From Escherichia phage HK630: a stretch of DNA of 47,090 bases. Under the pieces are notes generated by a model. The model had not been told where the DNA came from. It searched no databases and worked only from the letters and a program-made list of their open reading frames with translations. Shown here piece by piece: positions 33,143 through 36,205 of this stretch. Every line of letters starts with the position of its first letter. Within the stretch, counting starts at the first letter, position 1. The stretch lies in sequence record NC_019723.1, one strand, 5' to 3'. Both the position numbers and the translations under genes were made by a program.

Positions 33143-33275
33143 TCTTTGGGACTCCTGGCTGATTAAGTATGTCGATAAGGCGTTTCCATCCGTCACGTAA
33201 TTTACGGGTGATTCGTTCAAGTAAAGATTCGGAAGGGCAGCCAGCAACAGGCCACCCTGCAATGGCATATTGCAT
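33111..33275 (-). CDS. cIII: CIII (FtsH inhibitor)
   Basis: 54 aa [54 protein letters not shown], identical to recalled lambda CIII. Confidence 0.93.
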   Translation of the reverse strand: MQYAIAGWPVAGCPSESLLERITRKLRDGWKRLIDILNQPGVPKNGSNTYGYPD

Positions 33276-33333
33276 GGTGTGCTCCTTATTTATACATAAC
33301 GGAAAACGCCTCTCGTGAAGCGTTATTGGTATG

Positions 33334-33362: not shown

Positions 33363-33572
33363 AAAGAAGATTTCCAATAATCAGAACAAGTCGGCTCCTG
33401 TTTAGTTACGAGCGACATTGCTCCGTGTATTCACTCATTGGAATGAATACACAGTGCAGTGTTTATTCGTATGCCTGTCTTTTAACCACATCAGGCTCGG
33501 TGGTTCTCGTGTACCCCTACAGCGAGAAAAATAGTAAAATCCTCTTACCCCTACAGTAAGAGAGTAATTTAT

Positions 33573-34067
33573 ATGGATGTGTTATCTGGTATAACTGCCG
33601 CGAAACAGGCTTATGATCTGCTGAAGACAATAAAAGAAACCAGAGACGATGCTGTTATCGCTAAAGCTATTGGTGATCTACACCAAAGAATAACTGACTT
33701 ACAGATGCTTAATGCGGAGCTCTCTGGCCTTTATCAGGCCGAGAAGGAGATCGCAATGAAGCTTCGAGATGAAAATAGAAAAATCAAGATGTTTGTTGTG
33801 CAAGCTGAGAATTATGAACTTCATACAACTGAAGGTGGTTCTGTCGTGTATCGACCTAAGAGTCATTCCGATCATTCTATTCAGCAGCATAACCTTTGTG
33901 CACATTGCTTCGGCGAACATAAAATATCGATACTTCAACCAAGCACGGTTACTATAAAATCTAATGGATTCTTTGTGCATTCATGTCCTCGCTGTAAGAA
34001 TGAATACCGGATGTATAGAGCGCCAGACCCTAAGCCTGTATATGTACCGCCGCTGACAAATTATTAA
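33573..34067 (+). CDS. hypothetical coiled-coil / zinc-ribbon protein, transcribed opposite to the pL operon
   Basis: 164-aa ORF with SD AAGAGAG 8 nt upstream of ATG; helical heptad-like N-terminus; C-terminal CAHC...CPRC pairs; no lambda gene recognised here. Confidence 0.6.
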   Translation: MDVLSGITAAKQAYDLLKTIKETRDDAVIAKAIGDLHQRITDLQMLNAELSGLYQAEKEIAMKLRDENRKIKMFVVQAENYELHTTEGGSVVYRPKSHSDHSIQQHNLCAHCFGEHKISILQPSTVTIKSNGFFVHSCPRCKNEYRMYRAPDPKPVYVPPLTNY

Positions 34068-34097
34068 TTTTATTCCTGAAATGGCCTCTTCACCCCC

Positions 34098-34460
34098 TTA
34101 CTTTGTCAGGGGGATATCTCCTTCAGTTTTGACCATTCGCCTTAATACTTTCCTTAAGTCGATGTAAAGTTGAAGGTCTCCATTTGCTGCGGCATCAGCC
34201 ATTTTTTGCCTGACAAGCAGTAATGTTTCATACGGCTCAATAAGAATATCGTCATGAGTAATTAGGTGAAGCGTTGCCGCATCAACTATTCCTAGAGCTG
34301 CGCCAAGTATCAAAAATTCCCTGCTATTTTTGTCGCATGAGGAGATAAGCGTATTTAGCGCATACCTAATATTCTTTATAGCTGTTGTTAATGCTGCAAT
34401 TTCTTCTATGGCGTCTTCTCCAATGAGCTTTTTAAGCTCATATTTTTCTTCCTGACCCAT
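34098..34460 (-). CDS. hypothetical protein immediately downstream of N (position of lambda sieB)
   Basis: 120 aa from ATG 34460 (MGQEEKYELKKLIGEDAIEEIAALT...) with GAGGT SD; starts 3 nt after the N stop; not hydrophobic, so unlike SieB. Confidence 0.55.
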   Translation of the reverse strand: MGQEEKYELKKLIGEDAIEEIAALTTAIKNIRYALNTLISSCDKNSREFLILGAALGIVDAATLHLITHDDILIEPYETLLLVRQKMADAAANGDLQLYIDLRKVLRRMVKTEGDIPLTK

Positions 34461-34462
34461 AA

Positions 34463-34735
34463 TTACCTCGCCGTCAGTTGTTTTGATTTCCGGTAGCCTG
34501 CCGCGTAAATGGCTACGTTTGGCAGGCAAATACTTCCACTGCATTCTTCTGCCTTCTTGCAGCGAATGCTTCCGAGTGATGCTGCTTTATCTGCTCTGAC
34601 GCAACCAGAGAGCTTTAGCGCAATTTTTCGCGCCAGTCGCTGCTCTTGCATTGCCTGTTCACGTTGAGCCTGTCTGCGTGCTCTGCGGCGATTTCTGGCG
34701 TTATCGTCAGCCAGATATGTAATGACTACTGTCAT
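34463..34735 (-). CDS. N: N-like transcription antiterminator
   Basis: 90 aa; arginine-rich motif NARNRRRARRQAQREQ near the N-terminus; C-terminus ...LPNVAIYAAGYRKSKQLTAR resembles recalled P22 gp24; GGAGG SD; nut site downstream. Confidence 0.75.
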   Translation of the reverse strand: MTVVITYLADDNARNRRRARRQAQREQAMQEQRLARKIALKLSGCVRADKAASLGSIRCKKAEECSGSICLPNVAIYAAGYRKSKQLTAR

Positions 34736-34839
34736 GTTGACCTCCGATGATTGACTTTGGCGGTGACGCGCCGGGTGCTTATCTTCAGGTTGCCGTCGTG
34801 CAGCTGCACTTCACGTCACCCCAAAGCCAACTACTCTTT

Positions 34840-34885
34840 GGTTCCCGCATTTCGGCGGGACAATCCCATCAATGTTAAAGAGCCT
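34840..34885 (-). promoter_or_regulatory. nutL: nutL (boxA GCTCTTTAAC, boxB hairpin CCCGC-CGAAAU-GCGGG)
   Basis: On the leftward transcript, boxA-like CTCTTTAAC followed by a 5-bp stem/6-nt loop hairpin; the same boxB recurs at nutR. Confidence 0.65.
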
Positions 34886-34924
34886 GCCAATCTGTTCCGT
34901 TTGGCTTCCAGCGTCCTGCTGATG

Positions 34925-35035
34925 GCTAAAGAATACTGTAGGTATTTTATTGTGTAAATACCCAAGGTATTTATTTTTGATGAAATAATGATAAACAAAT
35001 GAATACAAAGGATATTTATTTTTTCGCTGTCTGCT
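34925..35035 (-). promoter_or_regulatory. OL / pL operator-promoter region
   Basis: Perfect 19-bp palindrome TAAATACCCAAGGTATTTA (34955-34973) plus imperfect copies GAATACTGTAGGTATTT (34931-34947) and GAATACAAAGGATATT; upstream of nutL and N. Confidence 0.6.
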
Positions 35036-35102
35036 TGTTCAGTGATTTTTATGCGGGATATGTGAAGTGGATCCCGATAGCTATTGCTGCCGGGATTATG
35101 GG

Positions 35103-35471
35103 TTAGTCAGCGAAGGTTAAGACGAGAATTACCTTAATGATGTCTGCTACAACAGACACGGCCATAGATAAACCAAAGACGATCCAAGCCACAGTGATGT
35201 CTTCACTACCATCGTATAGAGTTCCGTAATCACTGGTGTAAGGCGTAAATGTCGCGCCTTGATACAATAGGTATAAGCTTGATCCATAGAGGATAAATGC
35301 AGATATCCCTTGTATTGCTATGATCACAAGAATCATGAAACGAGCTGATCTATGCGCCCAAGCCTGGCTTATTTTTTCTGATAGAGATTTCGCAATAAAA
35401 GCATGCGCTAAGACGTAAATTGTCGAGATTGCCAACATCCCAAAAAAGCTTGCTATAGCGGTTCCAACCAT
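35103..35471 (-). CDS. hypothetical integral membrane protein co-transcribed with cI (position of rexAB)
   Basis: 122 aa from ATG 35471 (a TTG at 35492 would give 129 aa); about 3 predicted TM segments; AAGGGG SD; begins 18 nt after the cI stop. Confidence 0.65.
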   Translation of the reverse strand: MVGTAIASFFGMLAISTIYVLAHAFIAKSLSEKISQAWAHRSARFMILVIIAIQGISAFILYGSSLYLLYQGATFTPYTSDYGTLYDGSEDITVAWIVFGLSMAVSVVADIIKVILVLTFAD

Positions 35472-35488
35472 AATCGCCCCTTGCGTGA

Positions 35489-36205
35489 TCAAACCAGCCT
35501 TAGTTTTGTCTCAATTGCAACGCCTATAATCTTGCAGTTTCCATTGATTGGCACGAGAGGCCATGCAGGATTAAGTCCCTTGAGGTATTTATTTCCGCCG
35601 TCGATTATCAGCTTCTTGAATGTTGCTTCGTTAGAGTCAGAAAGTTTTGCTATGACCAAGCTGCCGTTGATCGCCTCCCTTCCGGTATCGAAAAGAACGA
35701 ATGTTCCCTCTGGAATGCTTAACCCAACCGGTGCCGTCATTGAATCACCTTCCACTTTAAGCCAGAACGCATTACCTTGAATATGCGCGTCAGACTCAAG
35801 CCAAACATCTATGTCTTTAATGGTGTATGGTTCGCATGCTTCACACCACGAGCCAGCCTGGATACTGCTTAACACCGGATACCTCTTTCCTGCTCTGTAT
35901 TCCCCTGCATACCTTACGTTGGCATCGCTCTTAAGGCTTTCTGCCTGTTCTGCAACCTTGGCAACAATTGACTGGCTAAAATCAGCAATAGAGACTTGCA
36001 ACAATCGTGCAAAACCAGATGCAACCTCAACGTTTAGCGCGTTTCTGCCATTAAGATAATGCCCTACCGCTCCTTGGGTGATACCCAGTTCATCAGCGAT
36101 TGAGTATTGGGTTATTCCCAATTCTTTCTTTTTTGACTCATACAAAGCCTTAAGCCGCTTAGCGTCTTCGAGCTGTTCTGTCGTCAGTGATTTTTTATTT
36201 TCCAT
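35489..36205 (-). CDS. cI: CI-family repressor (HTH N-domain + LexA/S24-like C-domain), non-lambda immunity
   Basis: 238 aa MENKKSLTTEQLEDAKRLKALYESKKKELGITQ...; C-terminal ...WLKVEGDSMTAPVGLSIPEGTFVLFD...ATFKKL... resembles CI/C2 autocleavage domains. Confidence 0.9.
   Translation of the reverse strand: MENKKSLTTEQLEDAKRLKALYESKKKELGITQYSIADELGITQGAVGHYLNGRNALNVEVASGFARLLQVSIADFSQSIVAKVAEQAESLKSDANVRYAGEYRAGKRYPVLSSIQAGSWCEACEPYTIKDIDVWLESDAHIQGNAFWLKVEGDSMTAPVGLSIPEGTFVLFDTGREAINGSLVIAKLSDSNEATFKKLIIDGGNKYLKGLNPAWPLVPINGNCKIIGVAIETKLRLV

Follow-up and report, generated by a model that had tools for sequence, protein, structure and literature searches.

Among the accessory genes described near the antiterminator gene N of lambdoid phages, two offer the nearest comparisons for hkaQ, a gene at positions 34098..34460 (minus strand) of the 47,090-nucleotide (nt) sequence of Escherichia phage HK630 (NC_019723.1; this whole stretch is called the window below). 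The first is ral of phage lambda. Like hkaQ, it lies on the pL strand between N and cIII and encodes a small accessory protein that is made early; both genes are dispensable and have a patchy distribution among lambdoid phages. Unlike HkaQ, Ral has 66 amino acids (aa), its gene lies beyond sieB rather than adjoining N, and the two proteins share no sequence similarity. The second is sieB (PF14163; lambda and P22), which directly adjoins the 3′ end of N as hkaQ does. Unlike hkaQ, it lies on the strand opposite to N (34482-35036 in lambda), is therefore convergent with it, has its own upstream region and encodes a protein of 160-193 aa.

The gene itself is already known. It was annotated as hkaQ (“unknown”) in coliphage HK620 in 2001, next to a convergent neighbour named hkaP, and it is catalogued as a PHROG of unknown function (PHROG 7374). 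The window is identical to HK620 over 33400-35100 (100% in DNA), and the protein is 100% identical to the HK620 one (HK620p17, AAK28865). The gene is also carried by HK629 (HK629_043, annotated hkaQ) and by one Stx1a-converting phage. Gene and neighbours (N upstream, hkaP convergent) are thus the same as in HK620, here set in a lambda backbone; apart from its HK620-type immunity region, the window is 99.9% identical to phage lambda. Literature searches on hkaQ, on its accession numbers and on anti-defence work in HK620 or on lambdoid pL genes returned nothing specific to it.

Our analysis establishes that hkaQ is a genuine, though uncharacterised, accessory gene carried by lambdoid phages, and that it directly follows N in the leftward early (pL) operon. 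We tentatively propose that its product is an accessory immediate-early protein that would bind a host or resident-prophage target, most likely in counter-defence; even with its secure parts counted in, we give this reading somewhat less than an even chance. The gene is under clear purifying selection: comparison with a 64%-identical homologue, P0003, gives a ratio of non-synonymous to synonymous substitution rates (dN/dS) of 0.17 (dS 1.52, dN 0.26). It is present in 96 of 5426 complete E. coli genomes (1.8%), always on the chromosome and therefore prophage-borne. It was found in 43 IMG/VR contigs, and of about 50,700 phage records just 5 carry it. A preliminary description of this DNA, made from the letters alone, had picked out the 120 codons (MGQEEKYELKK...DIPLTK) as a gene lying immediately after N; the selection, the HK620 and HK629 annotations and the E. 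coli genomes confirm it.

That description had also named the upstream gene correctly. The reading frame at 34463..34735 (minus strand) encodes a 90-aa antiterminator N of the 21/H-19B/HK620 type, identified by Pfam N_peptide (PF25694, 1.1e-15), PHROG 271 and the HK620 annotation. The Shine-Dalgarno (SD) sequence reported for hkaQ, GAGGT, is indeed there (34465..34469, minus strand), 5 nt before the ATG and overlapping the N stop codon, its last base being the first base of the TAA. The gap between the two genes had been given as 3 nt; it is 2 nt (TT), between the TAA at 34465-34463 and the ATG at 34460-34458.

A 28-codon upstream extension of the hkaQ frame (34461..34544, minus strand, with an ATG at 34544) overlaps the 3′ end of N and would give a product of 148 aa, a possibility that the preliminary description had raised. 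Comparison of the relatives shows that the 120-aa start is conserved among them and that the longer frame is not. Indeed, in the Yersinia, IMG/VR and Symbiopectobacterium homologues (L013, L056 and L011, respectively) the extended frame hits an in-frame stop 2-9 codons upstream of the ATG, and at the P0003 loci (L008) the upstream extension has no ATG. P0003 itself begins MSLEEKYE, which matches the 120-aa start position. Furthermore, the sequence (A/G)GCGAGGT is kept before the ATG in all five divergent lineages, including that of Symbiopectobacterium (L011), where N ends 37 nt away. We also considered a fusion of N to HkaQ by −1 frameshifting and rejected it, as N lacks an X XXY YYZ heptamer and the distant homologues do not keep the extended frame open.

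Some hkaQ alleles carry the RefSeq label “antitermination N domain protein”, which no N model supports. The name may have come from the 148-aa frame, which runs over part of the N gene in a different reading frame. Examples are L004:3001-3363 and L005:2963-3355, which bear the name while the adjacent real N is called “hypothetical protein”; this looks like a propagated misannotation. One IMG/VR allele (L055:4001-4361) is frameshifted to a 59-aa product, and is likely a pseudogene or a sequencing error.

The family is small. Single-sequence and profile searches covered 5.8 billion proteins and a full HMMER scan 1.84 billion representatives, and these exhaustive searches returned only four sub-lineages. 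The first, from E. coli and E. albertii, is 95-100% identical and has tails giving 120, 122, 123 or 130 aa that diverge from codon ~118. The second is the P0003 lineage (64% identity to hkaQ). The third is a short form of 92-93 aa found in Yersinia pekkanenii and one IMG/VR phage (the 44% identity lineage), and the fourth a short form in Symbiopectobacterium purcellii. Three long HMMER matches (P0009-P0011) were judged spurious: they cover only a short part of the query, and P0009, the one that we read, consists of PHDDHLVE-type tandem repeats.

Among the databases searched, which included Pfam, NCBIfam, PADLOC, the PDB sequences and PHROGs, only PHROG 7374 was matched, over the full length (1-120 of 120, E 1.3e-79). 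N_peptide, the other Pfam models and NCBIfam gave no match for the 120-, 130- or 148-aa forms, and PADLOC-DB v2 gave no defence family at E<=1. A fold search of the hkaQ model against BFVD found nothing below E 0.3, and hence no informative fold match. Three weak matches were dismissed: AbiH (E 0.16), which only the 148-aa frame matched; Exo70_N (E 0.004) for P0003, which is below the gathering threshold; and SG135 (E 0.0026), which falls on the variable C-terminal helix. The homology search proposed in the preliminary description led to an uncharacterised family, hkaQ/PHROG 7374, and matched no family of enzymes.

The coupling of hkaQ to N is tight. In 52 of 55 hkaQ loci, drawn from E. coli, the P0003 lineage (64%), Yersinia and the IMG/VR phage (44%), the hkaQ ATG lies exactly 5 nt past the last codon of N. 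The exceptions are two Symbiopectobacterium loci, with a 37-nt gap after a lambda-type N, and a rearranged prophage (L049). In the latter (L049:1841-2375) hkaQ comes after a repressor gene, with no N upstream, and is followed by a fragment encoding the C-terminus of a lambda-type N (…YYRKPRSEMGVTCVGRQKMKLGSKPLI). In the P0003-type prophages a second gene matching an N-antiterminator model (PF26859; L008:2652-2948, L007:7369-7665) lies ~1.4 kb downstream of the N_peptide-type N.

The pL promoter that would drive both N and hkaQ lies at 34923..34958 (minus strand), placed from the HK620 annotation by a 27090-nt offset, and our scan has a promoter-like site at 34958..34930; nutL follows at ~34843-34884, its boxA and boxB being read in the sequence. 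Between pL and the hkaQ start, a sigma-70 consensus scan found no promoter-like site, and the pL terminators annotated in HK620 (tL1, tL2A-D and tL3) are all downstream of hkaQ. The first of these, tL1 (33663..33686, minus strand), lies antisense within hkaP and is a weak hairpin that our independent scan did not detect. Directly after hkaQ we found no convincing terminator: a GC hairpin spans the stop codon, with no U-tract and a fold z-score of 0.44. We infer from this arrangement that hkaQ shares the immediate-early RNA of N, which is transcribed in the first few minutes after infection or induction, and that it is probably translationally coupled to N. The leftward immediate-early transcript that does not depend on N would then encode two proteins only, N and HkaQ. 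Since hkaQ belongs to the pL strand, precedes the first annotated pL terminator and has no promoter of its own that the scan could find, it should be repressed along with pL, and thus silent, in the lysogen.

What follows N is variable, even when N itself is not. We took a census of 75 IMG/VR loci (within L064-L143) in which N is at least 96% identical to that of the window. A convergent sieB comes after N in 38 of them, a co-directional gene for a 74-aa protein like mEpX2_041 in 20, and hkaQ in 15, 7 of which also have hkaP. The three types are mutually exclusive, and hkaQ and sieB never occur together in this set (0/75). The position right after N is thus a three-way variable cassette site, and hkaQ is one accessory cassette among several that can replace each other at this recombination hotspot. 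Its GC content (40%) is below that of the window (50%) and of N (51%), which fits such a status. Mosaic junctions are found inside N and at hkaQ codon ~118. Beyond hkaQ, about a third of the loci have hkaP, and others have Ea10, Ral (L035, L036 and L038) or other small genes. The apparent anti-correlation of ral with hkaQ (ral in 0/15 hkaQ loci against 14/38 sieB loci) was set aside as a linkage effect of the sieB-ral module and not as functional evidence.

Two other genes share the position and strand of hkaQ, 3-8 nt after N, and like it are uncharacterised: the mEpX2_041-like gene and HF4s_0037. Unlike hkaQ, HF4s_0037 encodes a 149-aa membrane protein with clear transmembrane helices, and neither product is related to HkaQ in sequence (hhalign probability <0.5%). 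The 74-aa protein is itself another uncharacterised N-coupled early gene product.

The protein had been described as soluble-looking and helical. The second term holds: the AlphaFold2 (AF2) model (mean predicted local distance difference test score, pLDDT, 78) has four helices, at residues 3-40, 47-66, 78-92 and 96-111. The most conserved segment of the family, IVDAATLHLIxHDDxLxEPY, corresponds to codons 58-76 (34233..34289, minus strand) and falls in the model at the end of helix 2 and in a low-confidence loop (pLDDT <50, residues 68-74). The short-form homologues have no helices 3 and 4; the conserved core is therefore a helical hairpin (residues ~20-67) with the invariant HDDxLxEPY loop. 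HkaQ is mildly acidic (isoelectric point 5.2, 19 D+E for 15 K+R), which falls short of the extreme acidity of DNA mimics.

HkaQ is small, helical and non-enzymatic-looking and is predicted to be among the first proteins made; N, moreover, works without it, as 80% of the phages with the same N have no hkaQ. For these reasons it most plausibly binds a host or resident-prophage protein. It would then act stoichiometrically, most likely by binding another protein through the HDDxLxEPY motif, rather than enzymatically. Its target would most likely be a factor, from the host or from a resident prophage, that restrains lytic growth; HkaQ would neutralise or redirect this factor, in a counter-defence or host-takeover role comparable to that of Ral. 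We rank counter-defence first on the analogy with Ral, whose gene lies in the same N-cIII interval in lambda and is absent here; an anti-restriction-like early function is plausible, being compatible with the position and timing of hkaQ. If HkaQ is indeed a counter-defence protein, it would be a cheap and testable addition to the anti-defence catalogue, and the 3′ end of N would be flanked by paired defence and counter-defence hotspots.

Several points weigh against this proposal. A tblastn search with lambda Ral over the hkaQ loci gave no match in hkaQ itself but found a distinct gene in L035, L036 and L038; these three loci thus carry ral as well, so that hkaQ is no plain stand-in for ral. 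Its close linkage to N would fit a regulator of the N circuit just as well. HkaQ could also be anchored in the membrane by its hydrophobic helix (residues 49-67), which would imply another mode of action. Finally, the presumed silence of hkaQ in the lysogen rests on a consensus scan.

The regulatory alternative survives best. HkaQ could act on the phage's own early circuit: on N (for example its stability toward Lon, antitermination or the use of Nus factors), on the lysis-lysogeny decision or on host physiology, in the manner of cIII or Kil. The adjacent pL genes cIII and kil are regulators of this kind. Moreover, the position directly after N, with the 2-nt gap and the conserved SD, is kept over lineages that are 44-100% identical although N is otherwise exchanged: its N-terminal two thirds differ from one hkaQ locus to the next, and only the C-terminal ~24 residues are constant. 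In Symbiopectobacterium, hkaQ follows a lambda-type N instead. However, these ~24 residues are the only part of N that travels with hkaQ, and they are conserved across this N family whether or not hkaQ is present (HK140, for example), so that the linkage can be purely physical. In addition, most phages with the same N have no hkaQ (60/75 loci, as well as HK140, mEpX2 and phi296), and N therefore does not need it. We regard a regulatory role as possible but doubtful.

A further alternative concerns the physical nature of HkaQ and can be combined with any function: a small inner-membrane protein anchored by the helix of residues 49-67 (FLILGAALGIVDAATLHLI; 34260..34316, minus strand). On the Kyte-Doolittle scale, averaged over 19 residues (KD19; a crude measure for which the usual membrane cut-off is 1.6), this segment reaches 2.03 in HkaQ and 1.99 in P0003, both above the maximum of 1.73 for lambda SieB. 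The helix is flanked by basic residues on its N-side and by the acidic HDD..E on its C-side. On the other hand, an invariant Asp and His lie within the segment and the Hessa-scale sum is +2.8 kcal/mol. In the short-form homologues the same segment scores lower (KD 1.52-1.55, Hessa +4.9 to +8.3). AF2 packs the helix as the high-confidence core of the four-helix bundle. Moreover, this central helix is the only hydrophobic one: there is no signal peptide or other N-terminal hydrophobic segment, and no second one elsewhere. The helix is thus either the core of the bundle or a possible membrane segment. The term soluble is plausible but unproven, because the KD19 value exceeds the SieB maximum, yet the segment holds Asp and His, has a Hessa sum of +2.8 and is weaker in the short forms; the non-membrane character reported earlier is accordingly not secure. 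We consider a membrane anchor quite unlikely.

The position of hkaQ had been described as the slot occupied by sieB in lambda. This stands insofar as hkaQ and sieB are alternative cassettes after N in the E. coli phages of the census. It does not stand for the slot proper, which is on the opposite strand. There, convergent with hkaQ, lies hkaP (33573..34067, plus strand), which encodes 164 aa. The 95 bp upstream of hkaP (33472..33566, plus strand) are 85% identical by blastn to the DNA upstream of lambda sieB (lambda 34396-34491), and the ATG-GAT that opens hkaP aligns with the ATG-GAT at the start of sieB. Compared with lambda, the window has no ea10, ral, orf28 or sieB. Since the sieB upstream DNA is retained and the starts align, with ral, orf28 and ea10 missing, it is hkaP, and not hkaQ, that has replaced the sieB coding sequence in place, keeping its strand, upstream sequence and start position. 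The alignments thus identify hkaP as the true occupant of the sieB slot, hkaQ not being the sieB analogue. The earlier observation was, then, essentially correct apart from minor corrections, and its interpretation misassigned the sieB slot.

The relationships of hkaP point to a defence function. A 21-sequence hkaP profile, run with hmmsearch against the PDB, hits Rip1 of phage HK446 (9oox_L) at E 7.8e-18 over profile positions 16-148. By BLASTP the two proteins, both of 164 aa, share 28% identity over 145 residues (E 5e-14). Like Rip1, HkaP has a long N-terminal amphipathic helix and a small C-terminal beta/zinc-ribbon-like domain. The HK446 rip1 gene lies in the same slot, where it is convergent with N, whose 3′ end it overlaps, and no hkaQ intervenes; Rip1 is prophage-encoded, and hkaP sits likewise. 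Further homologues were found by tblastn in the Pseudomonas Mu-like phages JBD30, D3112 (orf25) and DMS3. HkaP thus belongs to the Rip1 (ring interacting pore) family and is a predicted pore-forming abortive-infection protein; at an identity of only 28%, its antiphage activity and its trigger are predictions by homology. In a review (PMC13434031, summarising Patel et al. 2026, Nature 651:1060), Rip1 is presented as a prophage-encoded single-protein defence whose pore assembles in the membrane around ring-shaped portal or small-terminase oligomers of the infecting phage. The HK620 authors had annotated hkaP as a “putative superinfection exclusion protein”. This would be vindicated in kind, the exclusion-type function near N belonging to hkaP. 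A useful by-product is that hkaP can be named as a Rip1-family antiphage gene in the sieB slot, and that the annotation logic is corrected, with hkaQ in the lytic early operon. A profile comparison of hkaQ with Rip1/hkaP found no relationship (hhalign probability 0.8%).

Given such a neighbour, HkaQ could be an “Esc-like” anti-exclusion or self-immunity factor, directed against the abortive-infection protein encoded next to it (hkaP of the Rip1 type, or SieB) or against a related resident prophage. Outside E. coli, every hkaQ homologue adjoins a convergent gene of lysogen type. In Yersinia pekkanenii, the IMG/VR phage (L056) and Symbiopectobacterium the homologue lies between N and a true SieB (PF14163), and in the P0003 loci it is overlapped by a GhoS-like gene (a weak match). 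Furthermore, the 99%-identical E. coli allele of hkaP is never found without hkaQ (17/17 loci, 7/7 census loci and 5/5 phage records). These alleles are nearly identical, however, and a single recent common origin can explain their association. The partner is inconstant, about two thirds of the E. coli hkaQ loci having neither hkaP nor sieB, and most lambdoid phages have the sieB slot filled in any case. Moreover, the gene for the characterised Rip1 of HK446 and the Salmonella and Pantoea homologues of hkaP adjoin N or a repressor gene without hkaQ. We find this role decidedly improbable.

The exclusion function first suggested for hkaQ itself, as a lysogen-expressed superinfection-exclusion or defence protein replacing SieB with a different physical character, is very improbable: the place immediately after N (as sieB in lambda), the mutual exclusion of hkaQ and sieB in E. 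coli phages that share this N, the low GC content typical of morons and the hydrophobic helix speak for it, but an exclusion protein must be present in the lysogen, where hkaQ, on the pL strand and with no promoter of its own found, should be repressed, while hkaP, itself of a known defence-protein type, has kept the strand, upstream DNA and start of sieB, hkaQ coexists with a true sieB in three lineages, and hkaQ has no PADLOC or Pfam match and no similarity to SieB. No Pfam match to SieB is seen at E<=1, and hhalign of the family alignment against a four-member SieB alignment gives a probability of 0.1%.

Returning to counter-defence, a more specific version can be drawn from these neighbours. 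In it, hkaQ would found a new family of N-coupled immediate-early counter-defence proteins in which HDDxLxEPY neutralises a host or prophage abortive-infection or restriction system, possibly the SieB and Rip1 types carried in the adjacent slot by competing lambdoid prophages. We think this version rather unlikely as it stands. If true, the site next to N would be a general hotspot of counter-defence, opposite the hotspot of defence (the sieB slot) on the other strand. Taken alone, the finding is modest: hkaQ is a hypothetical gene, already catalogued and best filed among the accessory early genes of the lambdoid pL operon. It is nevertheless an orphan found in ~2% of E. coli genomes, and in a Stx1a-converting phage among others, and its product would be made from the first phage transcript.

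Two further features of the region deserve mention. The HK620-type immunity region (N, hkaQ, hkaP, hkaS, cI, cro, cII and O) spans ~33040 to >38100 of the window. Within it hkaS (35103-35492, minus strand) encodes a small membrane protein of strongly hydrophobic character (PHROG 6534). The gene comes immediately after cI, at the position of rexA/rexB in lambda, and is a candidate lysogen-expressed exclusion gene. The sole Rfam match of the region is Lambda_thermo, the cIII thermoregulator RNA element, at 33230-33288 on the minus strand (88.5 bits, E 1.2e-21).
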